Virus record (IMG/VR): IMGVR_UViG_3300008113_000183
Location: 6,143 to 70,142 of that record
DNA from: a virus
Direction: 5' to 3' (one strand)
Length of the DNA: 64,000 nt
The position numbers and the translations under genes are program-made. The notes beneath the pieces are model-generated. The model was not told the origin of the DNA and ran no database searches. It was given only the letters and a program-made list of their open reading frames with translations. The first letter of the stretch is position 1. Each line of letters begins with the position of its first letter. Positions 26,201 through 47,165 of the stretch are shown here, piece after piece.

Positions 26201-29200
26201 GTTATACCCATTGCATTAAATAGATTAGTTCCACCTCTTCCGCTTAGAACTCCAGCTAAACCACCACCAGCGAGTATTCCACCAATTATTGGGGCGCCAA
26301 GTCCTCCAGTTACGGCTATACCAGCAGCTGCAACAGCACCACTTAAAGCTACCTTAGCAAATCCAGCTGAATTATTATTATTTCTTACTTCATTTTGTTG
26401 ACCATTTGCATCTATTAAATTTTTAGCATCAGTGTTTCCAGCTGAAACTCCACTGCCAGCATTTGCTGTCATTTCATTCCATGAATAATCAGTTAGTCTA
26501 CCAATATAATTAAGTCTTTCGTTTGGTTTATCTTCTGGTGTAATACTGGCTACGGTCGACCATCCGTCACCAAGGTCTCCACCTAAGAACTGAGCAATTC
26601 CGGTTCCATTTCCTGGGTAAATATTTCTCTTAAATATTTCAAAATCTCTTTGCGAACTAAAGTTTGCCCACAATGTTCTCATTAAAGAAATGCCACCAGA
26701 CCTTACTTCTGGACCAACTCCAAAAACACTTTCTTCATCTCCACCAGTTGCCAACACATTAATAGCAGATCCTATGCCAAACGTTTTTCCATTTGCCTCA
26801 CCTAAAGAATCAAATATACCTTTGACTTGAGAAACAACTGCTTCATTCTTTGCAGCCTCTAGATCGTTAAGTGGCTCATAAAGTATTTGACCAAAGTGTC
26901 TAATGCCAAACTTATTTTCTGAGAATATTCTTCCCCTAGTAGCGTGTGCTATTGCTTCGCGAGTTCTTGATGAACCCATTGTCAAAAGTCTAACCATAAG
27001 ATCTCTTGGCTCAGACAGCCAGAATCCAGTGTTTATTCCACCGTCGATCTTACCGCTGTCTCCCTTTTTATTTGTCGAGTTAACGATTGGACTTAATTCA
27101 ATAGCATCTGATTGAGCAGTAATTGTTACTATTTCTCCATTTTCTACAGAAGTAATTGTTCCATTGAATATAGTTTGCAACGAGTTTGGATTAGCTCCAT
27201 ATCCGCCTCTTAGATGCACTCTTACACCTGGCTTGAGCCTTATGCTATTGATGTCAACCACATATGTGTTTTCCATGTGTCCAACCATATTACGAGCTCT
27301 ATTGAGAGCTTTATCTAGGACTGATTCAATTCCATCTAATTGTGTTAATTGTTCATTTTGAAACTCTTCTTCTGCGTCAAAGATTCTAGTAGACTCTGCT
27401 GTTGTTAACTTAGAGTACATATTTGAAACTCTAAGAATTAAAGTATCACCTAAAATATCTTCAGATTGAACAACGGAAAAATCTATAATTGATTGAAGAC
27501 CATAGAAGTTGTCAAACAACTTTACTCCAGAAAAATAACCACCTTCATCAATAAGCCAAAGCATGTAGGTTGGAAATGCTCTAATCATTCTTCCTGAGAT
27601 ATCTCTGTACTTTGTATCTATGAGCATTCTTTCCCAGTGTTTTGCAACATTGCTATTTGCAGCCTGAGTAGACATAACCTCTGGTGAGTCGGATGAACTT
27701 CCTGAATAAGGGTCACTAAAGTCTGCCAGATTTGATCCAGCTCCCTTAAGGGAATCTATATGGGCGCTGCCTTCGCCCTTTTTGTATGTCTTAGAAGGAT
27801 CATCGGCATCAGTAAATGGAACAGCGATCGGCACAAAGTTGATCTTTCCATCTGTGTCATCTCCGGAATTAGCCTTTGTTGGCCTTACTCCGTCAATTGT
27901 AAAATAAAATCTATTATTAGACTTGCTTACATAGCCTAAATGATAGCCATTTGCATGGTATAAGAAGGCTGGCATTTTGTCATCTGAAGGATTTTCTTCT
28001 GCTGGTATATAAGTAATTGTGTGATGAATGGTTAATTCGTCAGGATCAATACTAAGGTAGCCGTCTTCTGAAATAACTAAATCTTTAGTTTCAAGTATAT
28101 TTTGAATTTGCTGAGTTGCGCTAGAGTCACTATACGACAAGTCTCCAACTGCAGTGTTGAACTTTACGCTTCCAGATCCAAGAGAAGCTGTTAAGCCAAA
28201 AACTGCAGTTTTATCATCTATGTCTGGATATTCTTTAATAAAATCTATTAACAAGTTTTTGTTTTGACCCTTAAAGAACTCTCGAACTGCCCCTTCTACA
28301 TATGCAGATGCTTCGAGTAAACCTATTTGTTCTTTATCAAAATACTCTTTTAGTTTCTTTAGTTCATTGTTTTGAACCATAGTTTTAATATCATTAAGAA
28401 TTTTGTTAGTATTCTTTTGTTGTTCAGTTGTAGACTGAGCATTAAGTTGTTTTGGAGTAACAGTAAAAGCCTTCATTTTTTCTTGCTGTGGAGCAAGATG
28501 TTCGATGATGTCATCGTCAAACATTTCAAAAGATCTAAAATAATAATCCGGATCTAAACATCCAACGACTTCTCCATTAGAATCTTTTACAGAAAGAGGA
28601 AAATCTGGATATGCATTAAAAGCACCCCATAGCTGTTTAATTCTTAAAAATGGGTTTCTCTTTGTTCCAAATGTTTCTATCATATCTTTTTGCTGCTTTG
28701 ACGAAAGTGTCTCTCTTTGCTGTTGAAAAATATCAAAGTCAACAAGAGACATTCTTACGTCATAAACGTGTGGAAAATTTGGAATAGTATTAACTTCATA
28801 ACTTAAGGGCATTACATACTTAATGCCAGCTAAAGCGGCAACTATATTCTTGATGCCCATAAAGCCTATAACGCCAGTAGAATGTTCAATTCTTGCTAGA
28901 CCATTAATATGCTCAAAAACTTTTCTTAGTTTTATTAATTCTTTTTCGCCAAAAACAGTCATTGATATATTAATATAAGAATCTTTTCCACCAATGTGTT
29001 GATAAGTTGGCTCCTCTTGCATTTGGAGCTGCAACTTAGCTAAGTTATTTCCAAGAGTCACTGAAACACCATTAACTATTACGGCTTTAGGATCCAGATC
29101 AACCTTAAACATTGGAACTTCCCATTCGTTAAATTGGTAGTTCGCCTGTCTTAACCTTTTAGCTTCCATTAATTCTTTAATTGGACCACTCTTAAAAAAT

Positions 29201-32073
29201 CTATTATATACAAGAACATTGAATGCTCTAGCTATATCTTCTCTTGCTTGGTCTTCAAAATCTTTTGCAGGTCTTCCTGTGGTATTAGCTTTTCTTTCTG
29301 CTTCCTCAATTGCAAGTCGGTTTAAAGTTTCCTCTGTACTTGTTGATGCTTGAGTAAAAAGATTTCTAACATCTTTAAGGCTATAGTTATTTGCGCCCAT
29401 CTTTAAATCTTTACCCTTATACTTAAAGGTAATCACTGTTGTAATGTAGTCTTGTGTTGGTGGATTGTTTGGATCCTTTAATACATAATCAATTTCCTGT
29501 TGAGTTAGATTTGATTTGTTTTCCGCAACGAATGCTTTGGCAAAAAAATCATACACTTTTTCATTGATTGTATCTTTACCAATGCCAGCGGTAATTAATT
29601 CTATACTCTCTAAAACAACTCTTCTCGCAGAAGGGCTTACTGAACCTTCTATTGAAGTTTGGACAACTGAATTTAAAGATCTATGATATCCGGCAGATTG
29701 GTTAATGTCTATTCCCATTGTCTTAAGTAGAGAGTCCCACATTGACTGGCCGGTATCGTCTAATAATCTTTCTTCTTCAGATCTAAAGGAAGAAGAGTCT
29801 GGAGTAAATATCTTAGTTTGTATTCTTTCTGGAATAAACAAAGATATATTATTTCCATTTCTATATTCTTTAATTACATTCGTTGTAAGCACGTCGTCTT
29901 TATATGGATCTGTAATTAAATCTGGTTCCGTTAAATAATTATCTTGTGAATTAGAAAGAACTTCTACTGCCCTGTCTCCAGGAAGACTTGAAAACTGAGG
30001 ATCAAATGCATCGTCTTCTGGTTTGGGTAGCAAAAATGATTCGTTAATATAACTATGCAGGCTTCCTGCTGCTTTACCCATATAATGTCTAAACTTACCC
30101 CAATGAACAGCTTGGTTGAAATCTTTAATCATTGGCAAAAATGGTTTGTGATTAAAATTTAATAGTTCAAGATCCACAACTAAAGCAAACGGATAATTTG
30201 GAATAGTAGAAATACTCATTGAAGAAAGTGCTACGCCACTAATTCCATGAACAGTATTTAGATAGTGACTTTTTATTGGGAGTATTGGAGCATACTTAAA
30301 TGCCGCCACAAGACCTCTAAGAGATGAAAGAAACTTGTCTATTTTTTCTTCATTACCAGCTTCTTTAAAGTCTATTTTAAAATCTTTATTGAGTGTAACA
30401 TCTTTAATGCCATCTATTGATAATCCCCAAATTTCTTCATAATTTGGAAAAAACAATTTTACGCTTATAGTTGTTTCTTTATATCCTGCATTGAACTTAG
30501 GACTATTTTTTTGTCTAATAGCACCAGATGTTAAGCTACCCGTTTTAAACTGTGAACTTACATTAATGGAGACTGGTGGAACGTAAAAATTTGATGCACC
30601 TAGTCTAAGATGAAATATATCTGGAGTTTTTGGGGAAATGTTTTCCCTAAACGGGAATGCATCGAGTGCACTTTTAATTCTTTGTCCAGTATTAATTAAC
30701 TCCCAAGCTGGCTTGAATATTGGCTTTCCATCTTTGTCGGTACCAAAAGCTCTTAGTAGAGATTTAGCTAATTCATCTATATTGTTAATTGGATCGTCTT
30801 CGCTGCCACCAGAATAGTCTGCTGCTGCTGCTGAAGCGTTAAAAAATAAAGTAGAAAGATTAGGAAAGTATGACTGTACTATAGCAAGCGTTAAAGGATC
30901 TCTTGAAAGATTTTGAGTTACAATAACTAAATCATTTAGCCAAATAGTATCCCTAACTGGATCCAAGGCCTTTCCAGCACTTCCTAGTTCTGGATCTAAT
31001 AAGTTGTTTCCAACAGAAAATCTTTTTCTAGCAAAATCTCCAATTGCTGCTGCGCTTACAGCTAAATCTAATAAACCACTAGTTTTTATTCTATTCCAAA
31101 TATTTTTGAAATACTTATCATTTGACGAAACTTGTACTTCACCATTTTTTATAAAAGAACGATAAAATGAACTCTTTATATTATCTTTGTATTCCTCATT
31201 GTTATACAAGGATGAAGGAATTTTTCTAATTATATATTCTTCTATATCAAACAATACATCAGCGGTTGCAAGCATTCCGTTAAATTGAGATTCTAACTGT
31301 GAAGTATTACCTCTATCTGCAGTGTCAGATTCTGGGTTAGAGTTAAAGTCATTTTCACCTACGGTATAATTTTGCAGCTTGTCTTTAATTGCTCTTAGTC
31401 GTCCAATTGCTCCTGGAACTGTCATTACCGAAAGGTAATAAGAAGAGCTCATAAGTTGCGTATTGTTAAGTATCTTATCGCTTAACATTTTTGAAGCAGA
31501 AGTCAAATATGTTTCTGCTTGTTGATCAGTAAACTTTTCTCTATCTAAGAATGCCCTGAACATATAGTCAGCAATTGCTGCTGCACCGTAGGAGTCTTGG
31601 GTTTTTACATTTTTATATTGTGAGTATGAAGACTTATAATACTGATCATCTATTTGTAATATTCCATTTTCTGAAACTGGATATTGTGGAGGATTATATT
31701 TTTTATTATTATAAGTATAAGAGCTTCCTGAGCCCGCCTCAAAAAGTGGATTAAAATATTTATTATAAATTTTTATAATTTCTTCACTTGTTTTTTGTTT
31801 TCCTGGACGGATTTGAACATACAAGGAATCTGTGTAGCCAGAAATTAATGTTGGCCATAAGTAAAAATTTACGTTATTTCTATCATTTTTATTATCAAAA
31901 CTTTTCTTAAAATCAGCACTTGAGTCTGCATAAATAACCCTTTTGAGTTCCTTTAGTCCGGCAGCAGCAATTTCTAAGAGAGTATTGACGTCTGACACTA
32001 TTGCGTTATATTTTTCTACCGTCAACTCCTTCATGAAAGGAGTTACTAAAGTTTGAGTTGAAGTTTCAGCCAT
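20254..32073 (-). CDS. Giant baseplate hub/tail-tip protein (3939 aa) with a C-terminal thermonuclease (SNase-like) domain
   Basis: Hub-like segments LKPGVRVHLRGGYG...IFNGTITSVENGEIVTITAQ and GEIVIIGNADIRPHD...FEVEQVVHHF. SNase motifs IIDGDT, IRFDGINTPE, DVYGERVLG and LNWELVVNNLAKVY. Confidence 0.75.
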   Translation of the reverse strand: MAETSTQTLVTPFMKELTVEKYNAIVSDVNTLLEIAAAGLKELKRVIYADSSADFKKSFDNKNDRNNVNFYLWPTLISGYTDSLYVQIRPGKQKTSEEIIKIYNKYFNPLFEAGSGSSYTYNNKKYNPPQYPVSENGILQIDDQYYKSSYSQYKNVKTQDSYGAAAIADYMFRAFLDREKFTDQQAETYLTSASKMLSDKILNNTQLMSSSYYLSVMTVPGAIGRLRAIKDKLQNYTVGENDFNSNPESDTADRGNTSQLESQFNGMLATADVLFDIEEYIIRKIPSSLYNNEEYKDNIKSSFYRSFIKNGEVQVSSNDKYFKNIWNRIKTSGLLDLAVSAAAIGDFARKRFSVGNNLLDPELGSAGKALDPVRDTIWLNDLVIVTQNLSRDPLTLAIVQSYFPNLSTLFFNASAAAADYSGGSEDDPINNIDELAKSLLRAFGTDKDGKPIFKPAWELINTGQRIKSALDAFPFRENISPKTPDIFHLRLGASNFYVPPVSINVSSQFKTGSLTSGAIRQKNSPKFNAGYKETTISVKLFFPNYEEIWGLSIDGIKDVTLNKDFKIDFKEAGNEEKIDKFLSSLRGLVAAFKYAPILPIKSHYLNTVHGISGVALSSMSISTIPNYPFALVVDLELLNFNHKPFLPMIKDFNQAVHWGKFRHYMGKAAGSLHSYINESFLLPKPEDDAFDPQFSSLPGDRAVEVLSNSQDNYLTEPDLITDPYKDDVLTTNVIKEYRNGNNISLFIPERIQTKIFTPDSSSFRSEEERLLDDTGQSMWDSLLKTMGIDINQSAGYHRSLNSVVQTSIEGSVSPSARRVVLESIELITAGIGKDTINEKVYDFFAKAFVAENKSNLTQQEIDYVLKDPNNPPTQDYITTVITFKYKGKDLKMGANNYSLKDVRNLFTQASTSTEETLNRLAIEEAERKANTTGRPAKDFEDQAREDIARAFNVLVYNRFFKSGPIKELMEAKRLRQANYQFNEWEVPMFKVDLDPKAVIVNGVSVTLGNNLAKLQLQMQEEPTYQHIGGKDSYINISMTVFGEKELIKLRKVFEHINGLARIEHSTGVIGFMGIKNIVAALAGIKYVMPLSYEVNTIPNFPHVYDVRMSLVDFDIFQQQRETLSSKQQKDMIETFGTKRNPFLRIKQLWGAFNAYPDFPLSVKDSNGEVVGCLDPDYYFRSFEMFDDDIIEHLAPQQEKMKAFTVTPKQLNAQSTTEQQKNTNKILNDIKTMVQNNELKKLKEYFDKEQIGLLEASAYVEGAVREFFKGQNKNLLIDFIKEYPDIDDKTAVFGLTASLGSGSVKFNTAVGDLSYSDSSATQQIQNILETKDLVISEDGYLSIDPDELTIHHTITYIPAEENPSDDKMPAFLYHANGYHLGYVSKSNNRFYFTIDGVRPTKANSGDDTDGKINFVPIAVPFTDADDPSKTYKKGEGSAHIDSLKGAGSNLADFSDPYSGSSSDSPEVMSTQAANSNVAKHWERMLIDTKYRDISGRMIRAFPTYMLWLIDEGGYFSGVKLFDNFYGLQSIIDFSVVQSEDILGDTLILRVSNMYSKLTTAESTRIFDAEEEFQNEQLTQLDGIESVLDKALNRARNMVGHMENTYVVDINSIRLKPGVRVHLRGGYGANPNSLQTIFNGTITSVENGEIVTITAQSDAIELSPIVNSTNKKGDSGKIDGGINTGFWLSEPRDLMVRLLTMGSSRTREAIAHATRGRIFSENKFGIRHFGQILYEPLNDLEAAKNEAVVSQVKGIFDSLGEANGKTFGIGSAINVLATGGDEESVFGVGPEVRSGGISLMRTLWANFSSQRDFEIFKRNIYPGNGTGIAQFLGGDLGDGWSTVASITPEDKPNERLNYIGRLTDYSWNEMTANAGSGVSAGNTDAKNLIDANGQQNEVRNNNNSAGFAKVALSGAVAAAGIAVTGGLGAPIIGGILAGGGLAGVLSGRGGTNLFNAMGITSGLDDDLPGLDEVSFRAQTYMRTVWDLFQMCARLLPNYIVAVRPFEDRSTVFYGKPHWLYTSGVVPLTTGYPGTKRAEELGISAPKELDIDTVLENTMKELNKNSNPIADAAAFTQADSSLISIEDTLSQQLTTTSGGVYIPADKLRDNAGKSRVIAFGYKSTMEYRDDSGNAIAQIPEAFGFATVGFHLPISTEDSTQVTLDENQLKNHKQIDQLPLRYRFPFFTDRDDKVVLEDFAYYALADQLGKWENHKADYMTLALDSWSYNEVGGLKEETRWVTLLKLESERYAGVSNTVDYSTVENANGIPLALKLNASGMPSFKGTETEIADSYIFQEKLGATSGSAVIRMPLPDNPGLILDSSETRADVYNILKNNPDFNSNAAGLRDWKAPKTPEDEQFYIAMRWPYKPSDGFSDESIEQFIQSQGGYVPVGNAKSYQERKVMIYSPSTGKAVVCRPAYYLWGQETVRIASPYDNTVENGNSTVFSTDKFGNTVRSKLDTGSHWGVGGGNTLQLGKEAHLSAVVSPDAAYYLGMLNLTQSEKTFWSDGNHSKSEGDWHGAEDSIQTTAATGIAPFPIPRKCYYAFVPDDMPVGVVPDIVLPVDEFAPPGEEVVHEFGGDKKIISFGVFKGKKLTRVNQSYSPTAPSDGDAFFEFRLADSVSIVDAINSIGKLEIAGNILGENGEFGPGTKDYFDLVKNGKYDDLDNLKNILKEEKKDRSSFAGKRFSPIFDEAEPKSVEARKFYDEDYSQEVSVIAGNGRTLQQAIEIWDQFRSGYHTYAKVKEAFQRAYGLPADGPESEQEIGSYLSAGFGLGSKLGDQGVTTGNQSGRQYIDNLEKRYSTQNADSQESTAATNKNVNNLFKNYGDSGGTAEDEFSLVFGDRFFDSLDVQGPALENGQAVYAGQKIVSEKTRQGLETARKSFIDNPDSSVGLISYFNDLLNDKLDKILGIIRESLTLSGVSEKEDQDQYIASIKTSRQLFLFMVGAFRNRMWSDPYARAWLVLKPNRKFAGDDNWDFTPVLKIFQAYIDPNEDYGKSKDKFTKLLAQNRSEGSSATNFIGKWGEDVSGFWDKNIGPLFTALGDSLSGLVNLFRMSMMQLGYGLSQVGQMSKQANILNKVLNDSIYYSLGRPGSLLRAVDNPFTREYAEPVIEIRQPFQRVHYLSSFSHILANGITENLNGVATMVTAVSDGKYPVTVAMDKSAPAERQVEKTVETGLFFDNATGSGLFGALHPILHPFEFARGISKFAQGTPDEMLARRVALAHLKDSLKDIYTGEIVIIGNADIRPHDLVYLADVYERMYGMFEVEQVVHHFTSELGFVTSITPNALVTVNDPAKWFMSSWIGTWMHMQSLRNDTRLYMSSLGSGINSMSQISVDGLADSLQTQMIGGIQFTHGAAALTKDIMAHFTSEGINDINTQVKGLVAQGSAASSGQIALGGMSSMFIGATALGATALGITSMAIPGASLLVGGISAGLGAGVGGKLAWKGWSWMRDNVLDQHGCYIQYLNKNGKAMDSGLGLSGQGMVVGRYHTKKLLPGILGVSSKIKTAEGYSYIRTNDLLSKLGWKEKEINDLVRYIDFENALVNTQVLKYSGIGPEKAGLNRFFKVICKVEEIIDGDTIDVIDLLDTSGKKFRIRFDGINTPEINVISTDIHTSGKTANITNISINSKKATITTEANHDFNVDEICVIAIDNPGGFYILNSSAKIEATPTPNTFVIATSLPDNSAAKTGKVRVYATNSGEFVNSSSPGGKAKMFTRNALKDKIFVLRVSPENVTASFTENDFEAGSAKSIERRLINGEPVPVYYDKDVYGERVLGVIFYKTPTQALETIIREANSLFDKYKKASSADLLTQLASSFSPGVFSDRYSDLTSKAKDINKTDYFTQYASSTIQGVSAAMKQTYNAYVSLRLTEYIYERVSEWPNVEWDEYYDDGTPVSLNWELVVNNLAKVYTANMRIEQPSVIDSYENAAIPSQVTVNRNN

Positions 32074-32555: not shown

Positions 32556-35500
32556 CTAATAGGAGCCGGCGATTTGAGAATAAGGATCTTTGCCCAACTG
32601 TGGCAGTCCTCTATACATAGTACTGTTAACAGCCCCTCTTGCAACAGATCCTATAGAATTTGAAAAAGATTCAGCTTGCTCTCTTGAACCCTCTATGTTT
32701 ACACTGTAGCTGACACCTTGATCGTATCCAGAGAACATAGAACCTTCTGGAACTTGAGGCTGCCTCTGAGCCATTGCCTCATATGCCGAACCTCCTGGCA
32801 GTAATGGTGGTCCAGCTATGTCTGATTGGCTTCTATCTTTTGAAGCCGAATAAATAAAGCTAGCAGCGATTAGACCAGCTACTGCATAGCCAGATTTTTT
32901 AACTATTGGTTTATCAAAGAATTCTTTTCCAATTCTTTTATAGCCGGCTTCAACTGGCCTTTGAGTCTCATCGGCAACTTCTCCATCAAGTCCTCTAAAT
33001 AAATTGCTTCTTTCTTCATCTGTTAAATCAATTGCGCTTGGAGCATATCCACTTGCAGAAGCTCTTCCTCCAAAAGAAAGTATTTCATTCATACCAAGCT
33101 CTGTTACGGTACTTTTAGCTTGTTGTAACATTCTCATCTGTCTCACTGCTTTTTCTGTTAATTCATCAAGACCAAGTTTTTCTATTCCCTTTTCGCTGTC
33201 AACTAAAAGTGCTGCAGCTATTTTAAACTGATCCTCGTCAACTATTGCAGAACCTCTTCTTGACTTACCCATCATGTCTTCTGCAATTGCCAGTATTTCT
33301 CTTCTCTCTTCAATTGACATAGAATTAACATTTCTTACCATTTCGTCATACTGTTCAGTAAGGGCAGAAATTCCTTCTTGTTTATTCAAAAAAGAAGCTG
33401 CTCTTTCTTGTTGTCTTGCTCTAAACATATTTAATAAAGTATTTTCATCTGAATATCCAGGTTGAGACATAATTCTTCTAACACCTTTATATCTACCAGA
33501 CATTTGCATTTCCATTGCGTCCAATAACTGCCTAACAGTTGTACCTTCTGATTGATTAGATGCTTCAAAAATCATTGATCTAACTTTATCAATAACTTGC
33601 CCTTGCATTCTTGGAGCATTATACTTTAAAAATTCACTTGCTTCGTCCCCAGCCTGGATAACGTCATTCATTATCTGACTATTTGTTTGCATCATAGACT
33701 CTGCTTCTTGTAAAATATTAGAAGCAATAATTGAAGACTCTTTGGAGTTTACTATCTCACCAGCATAGGCAACCTGATTCAATTTAAATATAGCATTATC
33801 TACCACATCCATTGCATCTTTTGCTTGTTGACCAAGCTTTGCGCTTTTTGATGCGTGCGCAAAAGGACTTTCGGCATCTAAGCCAAGTAAGCCTTTTAAG
33901 TTTTGTTTTATTCCACCTTCATCGCCACCACTAAATGCATCTTTTATTCTTCTTGAGTATTCAGTCATTTCTTCTGAAACATTTGTGGCGGAAGAGATGT
34001 CGTCAAATCCACGCTGAAAAGATTTTAAAGCTCCTGTTACGTCGTCGCCTTTTAGCCTTTGATCTAGTATAACGTTATCTATACCGGCTAACATGTTTTT
34101 ATAATCATCTTGATCTACTAAATTTTGCATAGACAGAGCTCTAAGTTTTCCTAGTAGTTCAAATTTAGAATCAATCATCTGCCTTCCAGTAGCTTCCACG
34201 ACAGAAACTCCTGCATCTTCTGCTATTCCAGAAATCTTCATAATAGCTTTTGCTGCTGATTCTTTATCAATAGCTCCACCATAGAGTCTTTCCAAGTTTT
34301 CTACACCCTCAACACCTATGCCTTCGTTAAGGTTGACTATTAAGTCAACTACGTCAGAAGGAGCAAATGTTGCTATTTTAGTATTCCTAAGGGCAGACAA
34401 CACGCTATCGTCGACTTTACCCTGGAGTCTAGCCAATATAGCCTCTTGCTGATCAGCGCCAGCAGAAGCTACAGTCAATCTGTTTATGTACTGACCAATA
34501 GTGTCTTGCTTCAATATTGCTTGACGACTTTTTTTGGATAAATCTTCATCAAACAAAGATGATATTCCTGCCCTAGTTTCTGCATCAGCGTCTTTCATTA
34601 TTTTAGCTATTGCTTGACCATACTCTTTTTGCTTAGCTAAACCTGCGCTTATCTCTGATTCAACTGTTGATTGCAGCAGTCTTGAGTATTCGCCTCTAAG
34701 TGTATTTAATGTTCCGTATTCTCTAGAGCTGACGTAGGTACTAAGGCCACGATGTATTTCGTCACTATAGTCAAAAGAACCCTCTGTAGCAAATATTCTT
34801 AACATGTTTCCATAGTTGTACTGTTGTACTAAATATTTTTCTTTTGCAAGTCCTGCTTCTGCTGCTGCTTTAATGTTTTCTCTAGTCAAAGCTAATGGTG
34901 ATGTAAATTGTTTTCCTTCTAGTTGTTTAAAAAAAGAACTATTCATATCAACTCTTTGAATTGAGTAAGAACCTCTTTGTTCCGCTGATTTCATTAGTGC
35001 TATAATAAAATCTTCTATTTGATCTGAACTTTGTTGACCGATTAAATTATCTAATTGGCTTTTTCTTCTACCGGAAGCTGTTAATCCTTCGTGTATTGAA
35101 TCTAAAAGTGCGTTTCCAGTAATGCTTTCTTTCATTATGTCCAATTCGTTCATTAAAGCATCGTTGTTTTGTAAAAATAATTTTATTGTATCTGTGTTTC
35201 TAAGATCGGCTTTTCCAAATATAAATTCTCCAGGACCAGTTGGTTGACGGAATAAGAATGTTCCAAGTCTGTCTTCTCCACTAGCATCTTTAAAGATTCT
35301 AGGCATGATGATTCCTTTGTCGTCTAAGTCGAAACCACCAAGGGAGTGCTTGAACATGCTCGCAGCATCGCCGGCAAATAGCATCTTATGACCTTGCACC
35401 TGAAATGTAAGAGCTTTAATAGGTTCATTCCTGCCTAATATAGTCATATCTCTTAAGCCTTCACCTAACCTAGCTGCCTTATTGGCTCTACCGCTAAAAA

Positions 35501-37406
35501 ATGAAGCTTCTGTATCTAAAGATAACCTAAATGCATCCTCTAATGCCGGTTGGTAAATTCCATCTTTTATTCTAAATAAATCTGCACTAGCATTTTTCTT
35601 TAAATAGTTTAAAAGCTGTGGCATTGTTCTAATATCCATGCCAGATTCTATAGCTTCTTTTAATTGACGCATAAACATTCTATTTCTTTGAGCAGAGTCT
35701 CTTGCCGCTTCCGGTACAGCATCTAGATTTGCTTCAGCTGATTGATATATCTGCCTTCTTAGGTTTCCTCTAACTTCTCCTGTTTCGATTGCATGATTTA
35801 AAGAGCTAATAATTCTGTTTTGCCTAGTCTCATTTGCTTTAATGTAAGTTGGATCAGAGAACATGTCATAGTGAAAAGCGGGAGCCAATGGATCATAATA
35901 TACCCTTGCTTTAGCTTCACCTTGAAGAACTAAGTTAATTGAATCATCTGTTCCCATTATTGCTGTCTCTGCTTTTAAGGCAACATCTGTTGTTAGGATT
36001 GAATACTGGTCAAGTACTTTAGAGAAACCGGCTTGATCAACGACAGCTTTAATCATTCTAGGAAGTACAGTCTCTCCTTCTTTAATGTTCATAAATATTC
36101 TTGCTGTGATAGCCTGAAAATTATCTCCTTCAAGATTATCTAATTGTGAAGTTAGTTCTGCAATTCTATTCGTAACAAACTGTTGAGACCTTTGATTTTC
36201 TGGAAGTGATCTTAAAGATTCTAATTCATTTTTTACTTGAGCTCTTATTGAATTGAACATTTTTGAGTTCAGAACAGATGTACCATCGTATGCTGATTGA
36301 AATTTTGAAGTAAGTATTTTTTGTTCAGCTTCAGTTAAAGAACCTATTTGCTTTAAAACATTTCCATCATCATCTAATATTTTTAAATTCTTTAATGCAG
36401 CGGTCACAACGTCCATTGCTCCACTTTTAGAATAAAAAGCTTTTCTCTCTAATCCTTCAACAGTAGGAGTGACAACTCCAGTTATTTCGTCAACCTCTCC
36501 TGAAATTTTATCCATTGCTGTAAGTGTTGCAAAACTTCTCCTAGAAGATGCATCGGAAAATGCAGAAGCTTCAGGAGAACTTATAGCTTCTATATATCTT
36601 TGAGCAAGGTTTCTTAAATCTTCATCGACTTTAAATATTCTAACAGATTTAGTATCAAGTTTAGTCGTACCGCTAACTTGCTCAAGTAAGTTTCCTAAAT
36701 CCTCTCCAGCTAAAGAAATATCCCTTAATGCAATTGCGCCTTTAACGCGCTTGCCAGACTTTGAATACATTGATGCAACAGATTGTGGCCCCTTACCTAA
36801 GGCCTCTATTAGATCTTCTGTTGATAAAATGCCACCAAGACCTTCAGATGTTGCGCTAAACAGTCTAGAAATTTCTCCAACAGTCATCTCTTTTTCTCCA
36901 GAAAAAACTCTTAGAAGATTAAATGATGCGTCGTCGGGGACTATAACGCCTAAGTTTTCGCCAACCTGATCCACAATTGATCTAAGAGACTGCTTATTTC
37001 CTATTCCAGATTTAAAGCTCGCAATTTCAAATCTAATTAAATTAGGATCGTCTATTCCTAGTCTATTTGCTAATCCTACATCTGTAGCAAGAGTGTCTCT
37101 AACGGTCTTTAATCTTTGTTCTAGTCCACCAAGACCCCTAAGGTTATAAGAAGAGCTTTCTAAGTCTCCGGTAATTCTACCAAAGGTTGTCATTCCCGTT
37201 TTTCCTACGGCATCGAATGCATCTTTTGCGGTGCTAAATGTTTCTCCTGTTGTATTTAGTCTATAGACTAAATTATCACCTTCAGAATCTACACGAATAA
37301 TATCGTTGATTCCGTACATGGTTCTATTGAGCAGGCGTCTTTCTGCTAGAATTCTGTCTCTCATTGGAATAGCGCTAGTGCTTATTAATGGGTTTGTTCT
37401 TGGCAT
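32556..37406 (-). CDS. Large tape-measure-region/ejected protein (1616 aa) with RNA-polymerase-like motifs
   Basis: Helical composition, position after the tape-measure-like gene, and motifs LGGFDLDDKG, FLFRQPT and TIGQYINRL. Confidence 0.55.
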   Translation of the reverse strand: MPRTNPLISTSAIPMRDRILAERRLLNRTMYGINDIIRVDSEGDNLVYRLNTTGETFSTAKDAFDAVGKTGMTTFGRITGDLESSSYNLRGLGGLEQRLKTVRDTLATDVGLANRLGIDDPNLIRFEIASFKSGIGNKQSLRSIVDQVGENLGVIVPDDASFNLLRVFSGEKEMTVGEISRLFSATSEGLGGILSTEDLIEALGKGPQSVASMYSKSGKRVKGAIALRDISLAGEDLGNLLEQVSGTTKLDTKSVRIFKVDEDLRNLAQRYIEAISSPEASAFSDASSRRSFATLTAMDKISGEVDEITGVVTPTVEGLERKAFYSKSGAMDVVTAALKNLKILDDDGNVLKQIGSLTEAEQKILTSKFQSAYDGTSVLNSKMFNSIRAQVKNELESLRSLPENQRSQQFVTNRIAELTSQLDNLEGDNFQAITARIFMNIKEGETVLPRMIKAVVDQAGFSKVLDQYSILTTDVALKAETAIMGTDDSINLVLQGEAKARVYYDPLAPAFHYDMFSDPTYIKANETRQNRIISSLNHAIETGEVRGNLRRQIYQSAEANLDAVPEAARDSAQRNRMFMRQLKEAIESGMDIRTMPQLLNYLKKNASADLFRIKDGIYQPALEDAFRLSLDTEASFFSGRANKAARLGEGLRDMTILGRNEPIKALTFQVQGHKMLFAGDAASMFKHSLGGFDLDDKGIIMPRIFKDASGEDRLGTFLFRQPTGPGEFIFGKADLRNTDTIKLFLQNNDALMNELDIMKESITGNALLDSIHEGLTASGRRKSQLDNLIGQQSSDQIEDFIIALMKSAEQRGSYSIQRVDMNSSFFKQLEGKQFTSPLALTRENIKAAAEAGLAKEKYLVQQYNYGNMLRIFATEGSFDYSDEIHRGLSTYVSSREYGTLNTLRGEYSRLLQSTVESEISAGLAKQKEYGQAIAKIMKDADAETRAGISSLFDEDLSKKSRQAILKQDTIGQYINRLTVASAGADQQEAILARLQGKVDDSVLSALRNTKIATFAPSDVVDLIVNLNEGIGVEGVENLERLYGGAIDKESAAKAIMKISGIAEDAGVSVVEATGRQMIDSKFELLGKLRALSMQNLVDQDDYKNMLAGIDNVILDQRLKGDDVTGALKSFQRGFDDISSATNVSEEMTEYSRRIKDAFSGGDEGGIKQNLKGLLGLDAESPFAHASKSAKLGQQAKDAMDVVDNAIFKLNQVAYAGEIVNSKESSIIASNILQEAESMMQTNSQIMNDVIQAGDEASEFLKYNAPRMQGQVIDKVRSMIFEASNQSEGTTVRQLLDAMEMQMSGRYKGVRRIMSQPGYSDENTLLNMFRARQQERAASFLNKQEGISALTEQYDEMVRNVNSMSIEERREILAIAEDMMGKSRRGSAIVDEDQFKIAAALLVDSEKGIEKLGLDELTEKAVRQMRMLQQAKSTVTELGMNEILSFGGRASASGYAPSAIDLTDEERSNLFRGLDGEVADETQRPVEAGYKRIGKEFFDKPIVKKSGYAVAGLIAASFIYSASKDRSQSDIAGPPLLPGGSAYEAMAQRQPQVPEGSMFSGYDQGVSYSVNIEGSREQAESFSNSIGSVARGAVNSTMYRGLPQLGKDPYSQIAGSY

Positions 37407-37416
37407 ACTGTTTTAC

Positions 37417-40400
37417 CTAAAAAATATTTATCGCTGATGATAAGTTAACGGAGTTAGAACCATAAGGGTTTCTATTTTCTCTTACGCTTCCAGAAACACC
37501 CATCCTTGACATCATGGCCCTAAGTTGGGAACCAACATTTTCTGGAGAGTTATTTTCAAAAAATGATGGATAAGATGGATTGGTTAAATTAGCTTCTTTT
37601 ACCTGTTGTGGATAGTAACCCATTTGAGACATTTCTAGACCCATGCTTTGGCCCATCTTTATCTTAACATGTTCTAGATTAGTATTTGCATGCCATCCTT
37701 CCCAGCTTTGATCTGGCAATTCGTGCCTTGAGAAATATTCAGCTAGCTCAGGTCTTTCTTCTACTTTCATTCCCCAAGCTGCTTGATATATTCTTCTTTC
37801 TAATCTTCCAGAAGTAGAAAGAATTCTTTCCCTTTCTTCTTCTGGGGCATTAATCATTGCCTTAAAATGTTCTCTTTTTCTTTTTGGAATTGCTAAAGAC
37901 AAATTATCCACTGAGCCACCGTAAATGTCAGCTCCGTACATTGTTCTCTTCGCTGCTGAAGTAAAGCTTGCTGCTGCTGCTGCATCACCCCTTGCTTTTG
38001 CCTCAGCTGCTAAACTTGTATTTTTAACATATCCAAGAATATCTACATACTCTTCAAGAGCAAGTTCTTTGACTCTTTTTTTAGGCATTTGCCTTTCGCC
38101 GGTCACTAGTTCGTGTATATTTCCTTTAATCGAAGAAACTAAACCAGCTGTACCAAATATTAAAGAGCTGACGGTTTTTGCAGTTGCGGTTCTACCAAAA
38201 AAAGATCCAGCTGCTGCTGTAGCAAGTGTTGCTGTAATTGGATCTCTTTGAGATGCTTTATTCATCATTGGTTGAATATAGCTCTCGTATGGTCTTTGCC
38301 ACTCTGGGAAGGTAGAACCATAAACGTTTCTTCTTTCCCAGTCTTCAGTGGCGGTTCTTCTATTTAAAAATTTAGTATTAAAGAAAGTGTCTCTGTGTGC
38401 AATAAATTCTCCAGCCCTACTGAAAGCATGTAGTGTCGGATTCATTTCCATTTCTTCTGGAGATGTGCCCCTATACTTATAGGGGGTAAATTGATATTTT
38501 GTAGTAGTATCTTCTACTTGAGACCTAATATCTTGAACTTTTATTCTTTCTGCTGGAGAAAGATCGCCCATCTTAATTGTTCTATTTAAGGATCTAAATT
38601 CTTTTGAATATGGAGCAACATCTGCGAGTATGTCTAATTGATTAACTCTACCGTATCTTCCAGTTTCATCTCCGTATAAAGTATTTAGTCTTTCATATCC
38701 AGCTCCAGGGAGTCTAATTTCTCCCTCTTGAACCCTAGTAAATGGATCACCTGTTTTAAAATTAATAAAATAATCTGAGCCGGGCAAGAAGGGATATTGT
38801 TGACCCATTGTATTTCTAATGGGGTTTATGTAATTAACGTCATTTCTTTCTTTTGGTATAAATCTTCTTACGATTTCAGAGACTTCTATATTACCCATTG
38901 ACCCTTCGCCGGCCATGGGAACATCTCCAAGTCCACCAAGATTTAAGTCCCAAAATGCCCTAGTTGAACCATAACCTTTTGATGCTGACTGTAGGGCTGA
39001 TACTTGTGGTGACATGTCTTGATTACCAAAGCCAAGACCTTCTCTTAATGAACCAAAAGCAAATCCGTAAATACCAGCTGTTTCCTGAAGCCTGTAGCCT
39101 AGCTCGCTAGCCTGAAAAGGAATTGACCCTGTTGAAATTGGAGCTCCAGCTGGAACAACTGAAGGAGGAATTATTCCAGGAACTTTTGGTGGACCATATG
39201 TCAACCCGCCAGGCAGTGTTGCCGCTGAAGCTATTCTGTTTGGACCAGAAGCAGCTGCGGAAGAAAGTTGATTATTATACTGTCCAATTTGTCCTATAGT
39301 AGATCTGCTTGCAGTAGCCATTGGTCCAGCGTTTGCGGACATAGCATTGTTGTAACCAGAAAGCTGTCTTCCTGCTCCGTAATATCCGCCACTTGCAGAA
39401 TTCAATGAAGCAATTGCCCCACCCGCGCCCATGACTGGAGATGCTTTACCTGAATCTATTAGACCTTGAGCGTTGTATGCTCCAGAATCACCAGCTGGAA
39501 CATAAGCAGCTAATCCTGCTGCAACTTCTTGTTCATGCATCCTCATTTGAGGTTTTAGTATTTTACCAACTGTTAAATTACCAAGTGCTGTAGCTGGACC
39601 AAATGGACCTGTAAAATATTCACCAGTTACAGGATATGGCCTATCATAATAATTTTCTCTTTCAAATCTATATGGGTCAAGTGGCCTTAATGGAGAAAAA
39701 TCATAACCAAATGCTAATTTTTCTGCCGGCGAAGAATATGAATCTGATGTTAATCCAGTACCTTCTGCAAGCTTTCTGTAATAGGATGGCCTGTAGTATA
39801 AGACTTTGCCACCCTTAAACGGAGTTGTACCCAGTGGCCAGTATCTACCTTGTCTAACTGCTACTTCACCGTTTAAAAGTTGATCTTTCTTTTCTTCATA
39901 AGACATTCCACCAGGAACTAAACCAGATCCAACAGACTGAGCTTCAACCGCAGCTCTTGCTAGTTTTGTTGTAAAGAATGGAGAATAAACTCTTTCTCCT
40001 CTTTGATCTTTTTCATTTACAGCGCCGCCGATAGTTCTATCAACTGCCATAAAGGTTGCGCCAGCAGCGGTGATTGGGAGAACTCTTTTACCAACCATGC
40101 CTCGCATATAAAGATCAAGCGGACCACCATATTGAGATTGATCTAGCTGCAGCCCAAAGGTGCCAAAGTACTTGTTTAGTCTTCCAAATATATGCGCAGT
40201 TGGTATTGAGCCAGTCGAGAAAGCTTCAGGGTTCTTATATGTCCCTATGCCAATTGCACTCTTTACCGCTGCCATTGGATTTCTTGCAAAGACGGTTCCA
40301 AATGTGGGAAGCATAGTGTATTGTTGACCACTGCCCAGTGCATTTACTGAAAGATCATTTATTTCATAAGGCGCAGTGCCAAATTTTCTATTTAAGGCTG

Positions 40401-43400
40401 GCAAAATTCTAGAAGCGGGTCTTCTAATGCTTGTGTTTACCATCGAGGTATTGCCCCTGGTAAATTCACCAAAAAGTTTTCTTACAGATTCACTATTATT
40501 TGCTGTTCCAATTACTTTATTTAAAGCGTCAATAGAGTTTTGAGTGACACTAGAAGCACCCTTGTGTGTACTAAATGCACTAAAATTAAATAGAGTAGCA
40601 ACACCGTAAGCTCTTGCTTCAACGGCTGCATCTATTCCTATCTTTCCTTCGGCTTGAAGTTGTCTTGTTACTTTTTCAATTTGAGTAAATATGTCGTCTG
40701 TAGCATTAACCGTTCTAGACGCTGCTGGCATTGCTTGCTGCAACATTTGGTTTCTTTGAGAAATATATCTAAATATTTCAGACCCAGCTTTATCTACATC
40801 AAACTGAGTTTCATCCATGTAACCTTGGAGTCTTGAGAACGACTTTGAAAGCCTAGTAGGATCAAAACCTGCCCTTCTAAGTTCTGCGTATGCTTGACTT
40901 TGCTCGTTAGATAAACTTCTTACTGCAGTTCTTACATCTTGAACAGTATTAATCTGACTAGCTCTTACTCCAGATGTAGACTTAAATAAATTAGGAGAAG
41001 CTTCTTCAAGCTCCTTCATTACTCTTTGATTTATGTTAAAATTAAATATTCTTTTTCTAAAAGATTCTACTGCAGAAAGAACTTGAGACTGACTATATAC
41101 TTGTTCTCCTGCTTCATCTACTACGGAAAGTCCATCTAACCTTAAAGATCTTTTACCCTTTAGCGTATTGTAGGATATAGTGTTGTTTTCGCTAGAAAGC
41201 AGCTCTGATAAAACCCTAGGATTTCTTATGTCAGATTGTCTATTTTTATACCTAGATGCAAGTCTAAGAAGAGAGTTTGGCTGCTCTGGATCTACGTCAA
41301 AAATTCGTTTAAATCTTCCAAACTTTTGACTTTGCCCCCCAAGAGTATCAACTCTTTCGCCCGTTAAGCCTGCTGCATTTCTTGCTTCTCTAGAAAATAT
41401 CTCAGTACTTGCAGATGGTGCAGCTCGATAAAATCCTGGTAGTTTTGATGTACTTAGTCTTCCTGATTGATCAGAGGTAAAAGATCTAAGAGTGCCTTTT
41501 GTTCCTTTGACTCTATTTAATATAAGAAAATCTGGTCTTACTTCAGACTGAGGAACAAATGGTTGAACTGACCTTGAAGATACATATTGTAATACTGGAG
41601 AATTTCTAATGTCTCGCAGTGATCTATTACCCATTAAATCTGCTGGATTGAATCCAACAATTGGAACTCTAAAATCTGATGCAATAAAGTCTTTTGCTTT
41701 AGTAAGCATACTTGTAACTTTTGTAAAGTCAAGTATCTCGCCAGACCTTGTTTGGTAAACTCCACCTATTGCGCTTCTGCCCATTGTTTGAGTTGCAGCA
41801 CCCAGTCCGCCTGTTACTGGATCAAACGTTGCTTGAGTTGAAGCAAGCTGTCTAATAGATGCTTGCTGTTCTTCTGGCATAAACTTAAATAGGCCTCTTT
41901 CAACTCCTTCGTCTACAAGAAGTGGCCTTAATCCAAGTATGTTTGTTGCGCCTCCACCAAGGAATCCAGTTGTTAACTTTCTTTGATTTAATAGAAAGTC
42001 TCTCATGTAACTAAAGTCAGTTGGATCAAAACCTTGACTCGTTAACTTTGACTCAAGAACCGATTGAGTTATTCTTCTTCCATCTTTTTGAACAAGAGGT
42101 ACGCCTAATGTTTGTGCAGTTTTTCTTTGTAAGAATGTTTGCTTGCTTTCAGATATAGGTCCAATAAAATCTAAATAACTTTGTTTTGATGGCTTTAAAG
42201 TATCTGAAGCTATATCTGGCATAGAGCCAGTTCTAAACTGGTTCCATCTGCTAGCTATTTTTTCATGTAGAGACCTTCTAAATTCCTCAGATACAAAAAG
42301 TTGATCGACCTCCTCTATGGATTCTTTTAGAGCTTGTCCATTGCCAATTGCGGCTTTAAAATCTTTACCGCCTTTGACTCCTCTAAATCTTTCAAGAATA
42401 TCATCAAAGAATTCATCTGTTTCTCCAGAGAATTGTTTTTTTCTACCTAAAGAAATTCTATTTGTTACCTCAGAAGCTTCTTTTCTAGAAGGAAGTTGAT
42501 TTATTTTTATTTGTGCAACAAAGCCGTCTGCAGCTTTTTGTTCTATGCCTTTTGCATTTACGAGATGTCTTGCTAGCTGATCTTTATATTCATCTTGAAG
42601 AGATCTTTGATAAAATTCACTACCCTTAAATCTGTCAGTACTTGGTCCACCAGCTCCTAGTCTATAAAAATCTTGACTTAATCTAGTCAGCTTACTGGAG
42701 TGCTGAGATTGAACAGCATTAATTGCCTTTGTTAAGACCTCATCAGCAGAAGTTCCATTTAGACCTCTTAGCTTTAGCCTGCTTGCATTTTCGCTTAACG
42801 CGGTTGTGAATGCATCGTCTGTTGAGTATCCAAACTTTTGAGTAAGCCTACCTAATGCTTGCTCTCTTGTTAACTTTCCTGAAACAACGTCGTGGGCAAC
42901 TCCGAGAGATTTAAACTGATTTTTTCCTGCCGCAATACCTATACCAGCACCCTTAAATGTTGGAAGTACATCTAGTATGCCTATTCCATCTTCGGTACTG
43001 CCAGTAAAGAATCCTCTGGCTCTAGCTGTCATCACCTTGAGTCTCTTAGACCTATCGGCATTAGCCATATCTTCTACGGCCTGCTTAGAACCGTGCCTAG
43101 CTGCCCTTAAAGCCTGTACAAATTCAGGTTGAGAATTACCGGCCTCAGACACTCCTGCGGCAAATGCTCCGCTTGTTTGGGATGACATCTTAAGGACTTT
43201 GTTTGTCATCCCAGCTATGTCTTGGCCAACTTCAGCCAGAAGAGATCTAATATCTATTGCTGCGTTTGCAGCTTTTCTTTGCACTGGCGAAAGAGCCCTT
43301 AGGTCGTTCATTGAGCCAGCTAATGTCGTTAGAGAGCTTCTTCCAGCTGCGCCAGCTGCGCCAACTGCCTCAAACGGCAGTACCATAGTTGCCACGTTTA

Positions 43401-45323: not shown

Positions 45324-46358
45324 TTAAGCGATGTATTCGCCATTATTAAAGGTAACGCCTGTAGTAACCGTTTCGGTTGTAACAGGTTGAATCGTGTACT
45401 CTTTTTCAGTTTCATCTGGAACAGTTACGCGTTGACCAGTTGCGGCATTATCTCCGACTTTTGCATCTGTAAAATACATATCTCTAGCTATAAATTGATA
45501 GTTCTCGACTAGTGGTTGACCACCACTTGTATAGGAAGTTGTCATGGACATTAAGTTAATGTTCTGAAGAACTAATTTCATAGGAGATGATTTAGAAAGA
45601 TCAGTTAAAGTTTTACGTTCATTATAGTCAGTTGACAAAATTCTATCTGAATTTAATTGTCTATTTATACTTGATGCAGAATCGTATGTAACTACTTTAT
45701 TATTTGTTATTGCGACTTCTTCTGTCCCGTAAAAAACTACTAAATTAAATGGTGGATGGGCACTAAATATATTATGACCTGCCCCTTGGTTTTCTACTAG
45801 TGATCTAGCCATTGGATCGGAAGTAACTCTGTCTAATTCTGAATTAAGCCAATATTTTTGAATATTTATTTCATCGTCTTTTCTAGCCTGATCAGTTACG
45901 CTTCCTAGCGTACTCATAACGGCCGAAGAAGGGTTGGAGCTAGAGCTTTCCATTCTAACTCTAGCAGCTTCCTCTAAAAGATCTGTCATTCTTCTTGGGT
46001 ATCTAGAATATACGGAAAGTTCTCCGGTAATTAACCTAGTTCCCATCATCACCGCATCATAGTTATATGACCAAAATCCGTATAACGGTTGCTTTTCCTG
46101 TTTAATAACAAAAGCCATTGACGCAATATCCATCTCATATTTTTCATCAAAGAGACCATCAATATAAACTTTTACATCTTCTCCAGAGAAAAAATAATCA
46201 AAATAACTATTAAATTTTTCGTCTGTCCTTGTTCCGCCCCATTCAAGATCTATTGCTTGATTTATGGGATCAAAGAAGTTGTCACCTTCTTTTAAGTTTC
46301 TTGGCATATATGCCGTAAACGGTCTATATGGAGCCCTATTGTATGATCTTTCTGACAT
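45324..46358 (-). CDS. Tail tube-like paralog (tube initiator/baseplate-proximal candidate)
   Basis: FFSGEDVKVY...KQEKQPLYGFWS...GTRLITGEL aligns with the tube motif of 47166..47855. Confidence 0.6.
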   Translation of the reverse strand: MSERSYNRAPYRPFTAYMPRNLKEGDNFFDPINQAIDLEWGGTRTDEKFNSYFDYFFSGEDVKVYIDGLFDEKYEMDIASMAFVIKQEKQPLYGFWSYNYDAVMMGTRLITGELSVYSRYPRRMTDLLEEAARVRMESSSSNPSSAVMSTLGSVTDQARKDDEINIQKYWLNSELDRVTSDPMARSLVENQGAGHNIFSAHPPFNLVVFYGTEEVAITNNKVVTYDSASSINRQLNSDRILSTDYNERKTLTDLSKSSPMKLVLQNINLMSMTTSYTSGGQPLVENYQFIARDMYFTDAKVGDNAATGQRVTVPDETEKEYTIQPVTTETVTTGVTFNNGEYIA

Positions 46359-47084: not shown

Positions 47085-47095
47085 TTTGCTCCGAT

Positions 47096-47140: not shown

Positions 47141-47165
47141 GATATTAAGACTTAACCTTAAGAAA

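Follow-up and report, generated by a model that had tools for sequence, protein, structure and literature searches.

Does a giant protein in the tail module of a jumbo phage carry the active site of an RNA polymerase (RNAP)? The question is raised by P0001, a protein of 1616 amino acids (aa) encoded on the minus strand of a 64,000-nucleotide stretch (hereafter, the window; positions 6,143 to 70,142) of the 70-kb IMG/VR contig IMGVR_UViG_3300008113_000183, whose CheckV completeness is 33%. A preliminary description of the window had noticed motifs of the two-barrel polymerases in reversed order and proposed a divergent, possibly circularly permuted virion RNAP. The precedents that it named hold: gp96 of Thermus phage P23-45 is a virion RNAP fused to the tape measure, and gp66 of the crAss-like phage phi14:2 (PDB 6VR4) is annotated as a catalytic RNAP subunit. 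By a modest balance of probability, we favour the reading of P0001 as a tape-measure-fused, divergent two-barrel polymerase, probably a virion RNAP, in parallel with gp96 and its paralog gp64 of P23-45. The enzyme may be injected with the DNA.

Conserved residues of the 1616-aa protein

The gene and the segments on which the argument turns are listed below by window coordinates.

32556..37406, minus strand: open reading frame (ORF) of P0001, 1616 aa, the tape-measure-position protein of the tail module
35889..36311, minus strand: residues 366–506, candidate second-barrel segment, double-psi beta-barrel (DPBB)-B-like, with D374-G375, R436, K453 and K478-x-E480
35577..35888, minus strand: residues 507–610, long helical hairpin that separates the two beta-rich conserved segments, from DSSP of an AlphaFold2 model
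35196..35576, minus strand: residues 611–737, beta-rich domain with the Asp and R-x-P loops, candidate DPBB-A-like barrel
35313..35342, minus strand: LGGFDLDDKG, residues 689–698, candidate metal-binding Asp loop D693-x-D695-D696
35226..35249, minus strand: RQPTGPGE, residues 720–727, invariant R-x-P-x4-E block after a beta-hairpin
34476..34499, minus strand: IGQYINRL, residues 970–977, third conserved motif
34344..34346, minus strand: D1021, a further conserved Asp
32559..34049, minus strand: residues 1120–1616, C-terminal module, candidate tape-measure or anchoring part, with conserved GPPLLPGGSAYE at 1532–1543

The three motifs of the preliminary description are present where it had placed them, to within a few bases at most: its interval 35316–35339 covers the central eight residues of LGGFDLDDKG, its interval 35238–35249 covers the RQPT of FLFRQPT (residues 717–723, window 35238–35258), and the 19–24 residues between these two motifs agree with the gap that it gave; IGQYINRL follows at residues 970–977. 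A word-indexed search returned 74 homologs of P0001, 42 of which were aligned, down to 17% identity. Eleven positions were invariant in that alignment (G690, F692, D693, D695, D696, R720, Q721, P722, T723, E727 and T740), and these columns single out exactly the first two motifs. A profile search of 1.84 billion cluster representatives gave 217 proteins at E ≤ 0.001 (153 at E ≤ 1e-30), and conservation was scored on 186 family proteins no shorter than 900 aa. D693, D695, D696, R720, P722 and E727 were each identical in 186/186, which bore out the check on the Asp and RQP residues that had been proposed together with the motifs. D374, G375, R436, K453, K478, R627, G971, N975 and D1021 reached at least 85% in the same set, with the gaps of fragments counted against them. 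D1021 was present in 164/186 and was invariant in the 27 most divergent long members, as was GPPLLPGGSAYE of the C-terminal module. Within IGQYINRL, the counts were 161/186 for G971, 136/186 for Y973, 162/186 for N975 and 133/186 for R976; this motif may be akin to the bridge-helix GYxxRRL motif.

The DxDD string is frequent by itself, occurring twice in P0001 and three times in the 3939-aa neighbour, and is thus unremarkable alone; its invariance is what counts. Eighty loci were fetched by means of the patterns GGFDLDD and QPTGPxEF, and their 80/80 match to the motifs is circular and was not counted as evidence. Among residues of catalytic type, only Asp, Glu, Lys and Arg are invariant; no His, Cys or Ser is. 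The conserved site is almost certainly functional.

In one clade (loci L006–L009, L011 and L030, at about 11267–12733 in each), the homolog core matched the query in two or three frames, and its single-frame reading holds 43–45 stops; the same gene is in pieces in one complete or near-complete relative, G001. Such broken frames may have arisen from frameshifts, from insertions or from faults of assembly.

Paralogs encoded outside the tail module

Five complete or near-complete relatives (G001–G005; 202–211 kb, four with terminal repeats) were searched with a profile of the beta-rich domain. Besides the tail gene, the profile gave a weak match (E 8e-4) in G001, within a 926-aa ORF that contains LGGADLDDEIGVHIRLMV and then RLVAFIVRTPNDWSEF. 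Homologs of this ORF were found in G002–G005 and G009–G012 and thus, together with G001, in 9/9 records at least 80% complete. These paralogs are about 810–930 aa long and are encoded outside the tail module, one or two per genome; G003, G005 and G011 have two each, and in G003 and G005 the two are one of each type. The types are told apart by the signatures HGGxDxDD...RNPNDFGEW (type A) and HGGHD(E/Q)DD...RSPNGxGEY (type B). Alignment of the type A and P0001 families with hhalign gave a probability of 92.7% and E 4.3e-7 over 305 columns, with residues 365–730 of P0001 matched to 176–503 of type A, and the type A profile matched the P0001 homologs in G006–G008 at E 2e-5 to 9e-5. Among the 130 cluster matches of the type A family, no name was given beyond 'hypothetical protein' labels and a single 'ribA/ribD-fused uncharacterized protein'; some of the longer homologs (P0322 and P0337, of 1191 and 1395 aa) bear a NADAR domain (PF08719), and the 'ribA/ribD-fused' name belongs, in one source, to one of them. 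A tblastn search of 50,697 phage records with P0001 and a type A paralog gave no match.

The three groups were compared in 45 sequences, consisting of P0001 with 20 sampled virion-type proteins, every second of 36 type A rows, and six type B ORFs. Common to all three were D374, G375, R436, K453, K478, E480, G589, G690 and G691, as well as D693, D695, D696, R720, P722 and E727, of which R720, P722 and E727 were found in 45/45. The type B ORFs had been picked by the pattern GG.D.DD, with two of eight loci dropped, so that their Asp motif is conserved by construction and the other positions are not. The order of an Asp loop followed by R-x-P holds in every family member and in both paralog families.

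These paralogs bear on a structural explanation, in which P0001 would be a tape measure or ejection protein only and its charged cluster a structural metal site or a contact with a partner such as the tube, the hub or the 2230-aa neighbour. The tape-measure position of P0001 is in line with such a role, as are its standing as the fastest-diverging gene of its block and the language-model look-alikes of one P0001 homolog, which were tape-measure families at scores of 0.75–0.78, below the threshold of the tool. However, a tail-assembly contact does not explain the same core in the non-tail paralogs of all nine well-covered genomes, and six charged or Pro residues identical in 186/186 proteins against a background identity of 17–25% are typical of an active site. 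We therefore regard a purely structural role as improbable.

Comparison with two-barrel polymerases

The published definition of two-barrel polymerases asks for an Asp triad in one barrel and for a pair of basic residues in its partner (PMC7824862); DPBB1 has also been described as holding a fourth Asp, and DPBB2 a conserved R-x-P ('Pro-Gate') loop (PMC9508822). At the level of motifs, the residue set common to the three paralog groups has the composition of this two-barrel set. In QDE-1, D709 and K743/K767 lie in DPBB1, and R962-P964 precedes D1007/D1009/D1011 in DPBB2 (PMC9508822). The candidate second-barrel residues D374-G375, R436, K453 and K478 recur as motifs in the three groups, in a segment folded with low confidence, and the spacing of the two Lys residues (24–25, between K453 and K478 in P0001 and between K235 and K259 in type A) equals that of K743 and K767 in QDE-1. 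The order of the P0001 segments is collinear with DPBB1, neck/head, DPBB2 and bridge-helix of QDE-1 as described there (PMC9508822), and its helical hairpin is placed like the QDE-1 neck/head and the 613–679 connector of gp96 (PMC9508822, PMC10770324). The preliminary description had considered a partnership with the 2230-aa neighbour; since the D-G, R and two-Lys set lies within residues 374–480 of P0001 itself, no such partner is needed.

A close point of comparison is gp99 (ABS83659.1) of Bacillus phage 0305phi8-36, which belongs to the nearest cultured lineage of the source phage and which Iyer et al. (PMC7824862) cited as YonO-like. It matches Pfam RdRP (PF05183) with 67.6 bits and shows PLDGQG, QIRFGFTKGLLLVYP, FRSPLIHKSE and MGGADTDGDK. 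An alignment of 37 of its 65 homologs has D229, G230, R293, K298, G299, K349, Q388, F425, R529, P531, E537, G570 and G571 as invariants. The D-G, R-x4-K-G, K and GG-A-D-x-D-G-D-K of this family parallel the D-G, R...K(G), K-x-E and GG-x-D-x-D-D-K/E of the P0001 groups, and RQPTGPGE resembles both the Pro-Gate loop of two-barrel polymerases (PMC9508822) and FRSPLIHKSE, but on the other side of the Asp loop. In contrast to the YonO/RdRP family, P0001 lacks the Gly between the second and third Asp. A slice of the type A profile with D-G...R...K-G aligned by hhalign to D229-G230...R293...K298-G299 of the RdRP family (P 0.0054, 67 columns), and the type A Asp-loop slice mapped onto FDDTLPRMGGADTDG (P 0.019); of 20 slices tiled as a control, only the one with R...K-G reached P 0.018, and every other gave at least 0.064. 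These ties to known two-barrel enzymes are faint, though they agree with one another.

The architecture of P0001 recalls that of gp96, a tape-measure-fused virion RNAP with a non-virion paralog (gp64), the motif 779-DFDGD-783 and structures under PDB 8H2M/8H2N (PMC10770324). Both are giant tape-measure-position proteins with an N-terminal module that is, in P0001, a candidate enzyme, and both have non-virion paralogs, in P0001 in related genomes; by eye, the D-G, R and K(G) set of P0001 has counterparts in GDGxxG, VVQVR and GLKGTVIVDP of gp96. The two differ in that gp96 has a canonical FRNPVMGH before DFDGD, P23-45 is a siphovirus whereas the source phage here is a contractile-tailed jumbo phage, and some relatives of the latter have two extra paralogs instead of one. 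The crAss-like virion RNAP is a two-barrel enzyme of one chain, which the virion carries within a giant protein (PMC10770324). The phi14:2 gp66 motif is a canonical DFDxD (bioRxiv 10.1101/2020.03.07.982082), and, unlike P0001, the crAss-like enzyme is packaged in a podovirus, outside the tape-measure position.

Two AlphaFold2 models were made. The first, of residues 440–900 (461 aa; 39 sequences; predicted local distance difference test (pLDDT) 73.8, predicted template modelling score 0.70), shows a poorly defined beta region, the long helical hairpin (DSSP helices at model positions 80–171), a beta-rich domain with both motifs, and then helices. The second comprises the beta domain alone (residues 600–745, pLDDT 74.9), and its strands at positions 98–108 and 113–122 form a predicted hairpin. 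Because this hairpin brings its end back to its start, R720 should lie beside the Asp loop, as judged from the predicted secondary structure. Among two-barrel enzymes, gp96 alone was listed for the beta-domain model, with matches that cover chain range 611–794, and the crAss-like polymerase was not among the fold matches listed. That range of gp96 holds the barrel with 779-DFDGD-783 (PMC10770324), and its ends are compatible with superposed Asp loops in the model: model position 106 falls against chain position 792, DLDD ends at 97 and DFDGD ends at 783. With VIA-align, the whole 461-aa model matched helical hairpins only, and the only fold matches of its own hairpin were generic ones; among two-barrel enzymes, QDE-1 and Escherichia coli RNAP beta were listed for this model, beta over the helical hairpin only. 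Apart from beta, the two-barrel enzymes that surfaced, gp96 and QDE-1, are single-chain ones. Foldseek against BFVD at E ≤ 1e-3 gave only three uncharacterised proteins of uncultured phages, and ESM Atlas look-alikes included no score of at least 0.9. No meaningful match came from profile searches of PDB sequences with A2, A1, A4 and A6 or from phmmer runs with P0217 and gp146.

A number of results weigh against a two-barrel polymerase. P0001 has DxDD and no DxDxD anywhere; 186/186 members have DxDD, and so do both paralog groups, which looks like DxDGD with its Gly deleted. R720-x-P722 lies 24 residues after the triad instead of the canonical 35–45 before it, and the canonical upstream place is taken in P0001 by F668-(R/Q)669...H673, a stretch that the paralog groups do not conserve. 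The curated two-barrel models (Pfam RdRP, Rpb1_2, Rpb2_6) matched neither P0001 nor the paralogs. More widely, P0001 had no Pfam match at E ≤ 1 and no PHROG match, 27 divergent members had no Pfam match at E ≤ 0.01, the profiles of the P0001 family had no PDB-sequence match, and the paralogs had no Pfam or PDB-sequence match. Neither AlphaFold2 model found anything in the PDB with Foldseek at E ≤ 1e-3, so that the structural check suggested in the preliminary description, as run on the residue 440–900 model, came back empty; the fold matches fall in the noise range, with a best VIA Z of 3.2 for the beta domain, to a phage portal, and the candidate first-barrel region was modelled from residue 440 only, at pLDDT 34–57. 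The slice tests were designed after the motifs had been seen and are marginal, the R-x-P slice had no alignment with any part of the RdRP family, and the full-length hhalign comparisons with that family were not significant (P 0.069 for A6, a type A profile; P 0.46 for A1); the best full-length alignment of type A nevertheless fell on the D-G...R...K-G block. Full-length hhalign of A2 and A6 against gp96 gave probabilities of 0.09–0.13%, and the type A hidden Markov model had no match in 0305phi8-36; hhalign with -mact 0.05 against three gp96 homologs produced a global alignment devoid of meaning, which was set aside. Finally, the profile search found no paralog in the window's own record or in the 44–56% complete contigs of its nearest clade; as the record and these contigs are incomplete, this absence decides nothing.

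Four further readings of FDLDD (as a HAD, PD-(D/E)xK nuclease, NodB deacetylase or DEDD ExoI motif) were weighed and dropped because of spacing, predicted secondary structure and the absence of a fold match.

Since a DxDxD triad, an upstream R-x-P and a family-model match are lacking and the fold is a predicted one, we do not count P0001 among the two-barrel polymerases; it probably works like one. The reversed order of motifs on which the proposal of a permuted polymerase core was built stands, and a circular permutation is one possible reading of it.

Under the favoured reading of a two-barrel polymerase, the first ~1120 residues of P0001 would form a very divergent single-chain enzyme of the cellular RNAP/QDE-1/YonO/gp96 kind, making RNA rather than DNA. 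Its first beta-rich segment would supply D374, R436, K453 and K478, and after the helical hairpin the second beta-rich domain would supply D693, D695 and D696, which would bind Mg2+. The beta-hairpin would return the R720-x-P722 loop to the side of these Asp residues, in reach of the incoming nucleotide, which the loop would contact. A tether inside the tail would be formed by the last ~500 residues, so that the enzyme would exit with the DNA and transcribe the first genes; at a later stage, the 810–930-aa paralogs from other places in related genomes would replace it. The analysis establishes position, conservation and paralogy; fold, polymerase activity, an RNA product and ejection are inferred.

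Tail locus, a putative programmed frameshift and the search for transcription enzymes in related phages

All large genes of the window lie on its minus strand, and the two giant neighbours of P0001 are the following.

37417..44109, minus strand: P0002, 2230 aa, upstream neighbour, homolog of the 0305phi8-36 virion structural protein gp145
20254..32073, minus strand: P0003, 3939 aa, downstream, with PHROG matches, at the baseplate-hub position (that of hub gp147)

Upstream of P0001 are two tail-sheath paralogs, three tube-position paralogs and then two small genes, and a baseplate-J-like gene lies downstream. The corresponding genes of 0305phi8-36 begin with a sheath paralog and the sheath, followed by the tube and its paralog, two chaperonins (gp143/144), gp145, gp146 and hub gp147, with gp146 annotated as 'hypothetical tape measure protein'. 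Thus, P0001 lies between the tail-chaperone genes and the hub with the gp145 homolog intervening as in 0305phi8-36, and by this synteny it occupies the tape-measure position itself. The preliminary description had placed it next to the tape measure, which has to be revised, because its 2230-aa neighbour is the gp145 homolog and the 3939-aa protein is in the hub position. No Pfam or PHROG tape-measure family model matched P0001. The assignment of orf146 as tape measure was made from tail length by Hardies in 2007 (PMC2147016). Residues 1258–2230 of P0002 matched ORF145 of 0305phi8-36 with 28.5% identity (E 2e-42, tblastn), and its C-terminal half also matched Bacillus WH1, Moorella MTATph1 and Acinetobacter ME3 by tblastn. 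Taken together, the source phage is best explained as a jumbo myovirus of ~200 kb related to 0305phi8-36.

The block consisting of p241, p344, p167, p208 and the 2230-, 1616-, 156- and 3939-aa proteins was kept in 14/14 related loci examined (80 fetched). Within it P0001 diverges fastest, with 23–27% identity compared to 41–61% for its neighbours. Searches of Pfam and PDB sequences with P0002 gave no match, and its paralogy with P0001 was dropped (best BLASTP E 0.03); the C-terminal half of P0002 (window 37417–40338) shows hundreds of invariant columns in 13 sequences at 43–50% identity. P0003 matched PHROG 20474 ('endolysin') at E 6.6e-124 and, at residues 3542–3608, PHROG 452 (endonuclease, staphylococcal-nuclease-like), and it has Gly-rich hydrophobic segments at 1903–1943 and 3402–3430. 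Three adjacent paralogs at 45324–47855 (229, 241 and 344 aa) match PHROG 9206, labelled 'major head protein'; since they sit where 0305phi8-36 has the tail tube and its paralog, the label is probably a misnomer. Directly upstream of the structural module, at 55129–57224, a tryptophan-halogenase-like gene (PHROG 2928, E 1.6e-102) adjoins a 2OG-Fe(II) oxygenase-like gene.

The contents of this tail module speak to whether the conserved core could be a cell-wall-degrading domain of the kind found in many tape measures and tail tips. Lytic domains are frequent in tape measures, and gp96 has a metallopeptidase domain (PMC10770324). Against such a domain here, no lytic family in Pfam or PHROGs matched, the family has no invariant His, Cys or Ser, a lytic function is already found in the 3939-aa hub-position protein, and an enzyme that degrades the wall would have no use for paralogs outside the tail. 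We consider this explanation highly implausible.

The gene at the P0001 position in 0305phi8-36 codes for gp146 (2537 aa), a virion protein by mass spectrometry that lies between gp145 and the hub. According to the 2007 report, orf146 homologs diverge rapidly, with only the last ~60 residues alignable, and the orf146 homolog of phage BtI1 is split by a frameshift (PMC2147016). P0001 resembles gp146 in its rapid divergence with a conserved C-terminal end, in agreement with that report, and in the split of its gene by a frameshift in a relative (PMC2147016). Unlike P0001, gp146 lacks the DxDD/R-x-P core. Alignment of the P0001 family with gp146 by hhalign gave a probability of 0.14%, i.e. no detectable homology, and gp146, ME3_36 and MTATph1 CDS0027 showed no homology to the P0001 core. 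By eye, gp146 (L084:24284–31897) has YLDIETTGL, a second acidic motif and HLARAD, in the manner of a DEDD exonuclease, where Pfam found nothing; MTATph1 CDS0027 (L085:17708–21637) matched Pfam RNase_T with 24.2 bits against a cut-off of 24.

As the MTATph1 equivalent carries RNase_T, an enzyme at the P0001 position need not be a polymerase, which adds to the points against the favoured reading. The core of P0001 could instead be a metal-dependent nucleic-acid enzyme with a fold of its own (a nuclease, nucleotidyltransferase, primase or DNA-end-processing enzyme), its likeness to the two-barrel polymerases being convergent; such an enzyme would be carried in the tail and act on host or phage DNA at entry, and its paralogs would do the same job later. 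Invariants that are Asp, Glu, Lys and Arg only fit phosphoryl transfer in general, no known fold was confidently matched, the NADAR (PF08719) fusions of some type A homologs point in the same direction, and relatives have another nucleic-acid enzyme at this position, as seen from the RNase_T match of MTATph1 and the DEDD-like residues of gp146. P0001 itself had no RNase_T model match and no RNase H-like fold match. What sets the polymerase reading apart is that the entire set (D-G, R...K-G, K, GG-x-D-x-D(D)), beyond its acidic cluster, fits the two-barrel definition collinearly. On this evidence, we judge a separate nucleic-acid enzyme unlikely, though it is the main rival of the favoured reading.

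In several relatives (L004, L058, L070 and L080), the gene consists of two overlapping ORFs (for example, 1124 and 509 aa), with the C-terminal module separate. The shift is +1 at codons matching K1119/G1120 (window 34047–34052). In L004 (13290–13460), CTT AAG C GGA GAT GAT gives the RLK|GDD of P0001 only through a +1 shift. Six sampled clusters of ~1100-aa proteins end in RLKRR or RLNRR, and conservation past the shift includes residues that lie upstream of any start codon. The pattern has the look of a programmed +1 frameshift, conserved in the group, by which an enzyme-only product and a fusion product are both made. The frameshift in the same gene position of BtI1 was dismissed as an error in 2007 (PMC2147016). 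The gp96 and gp64 polymerases were found by a DxDxD search (PMC10770324).

The five complete or near-complete relatives were also searched for known polymerases. DNA polymerase III alpha was found in 5/5, and family A and B DNA polymerases in 0/5; Rpb1_2 (PF00623), Rpb2_6 (PF00562), sigma70 region 2 and Pfam RdRP (PF05183) were each found in 0/5, and Pfam RdRP matched P0001 no more than these genomes. The T7-type RNAP model was silent in all five and also in control genomes, and is thus uninformative. With PolIII alpha in 5/5 and the RNAP models in 0/5, the replicative polymerase is accounted for and the transcription enzyme is unrecognisable. More tentatively, the catalytic barrel of this branch may be rearranged into what amounts to a permuted double-psi barrel, with its Asp loop cut down to DxDD and its nucleotide-gating R-x-P loop displaced past the hairpin, and the three enzymes may together make up a complete transcription apparatus of the phage's own, independent of host RNAP. 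One copy would then be fused to the tape measure and delivered through the contractile tail, and one or two non-virion copies would act later, in a widespread, mostly freshwater group of ~200-kb jumbo myoviruses.

If the favoured reading is correct, tape-measure-fused virion polymerases would extend beyond one Thermus siphovirus to contractile-tailed jumbo phages (217 cluster representatives). The two-barrel active site would tolerate DxDD and a relocated R-x-P, searches for DxDxD would miss this branch, and the finding would bear on the evolution of the double-psi barrel. For phages of ~200 kb with no recognisable RNAP or sigma factor, the three paralogs would become a candidate transcription machinery. 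Should it prove not to be a polymerase, a conserved catalytic-looking module in a tape-measure-position protein, with stand-alone paralogs, constitutes a testable new enzyme family.

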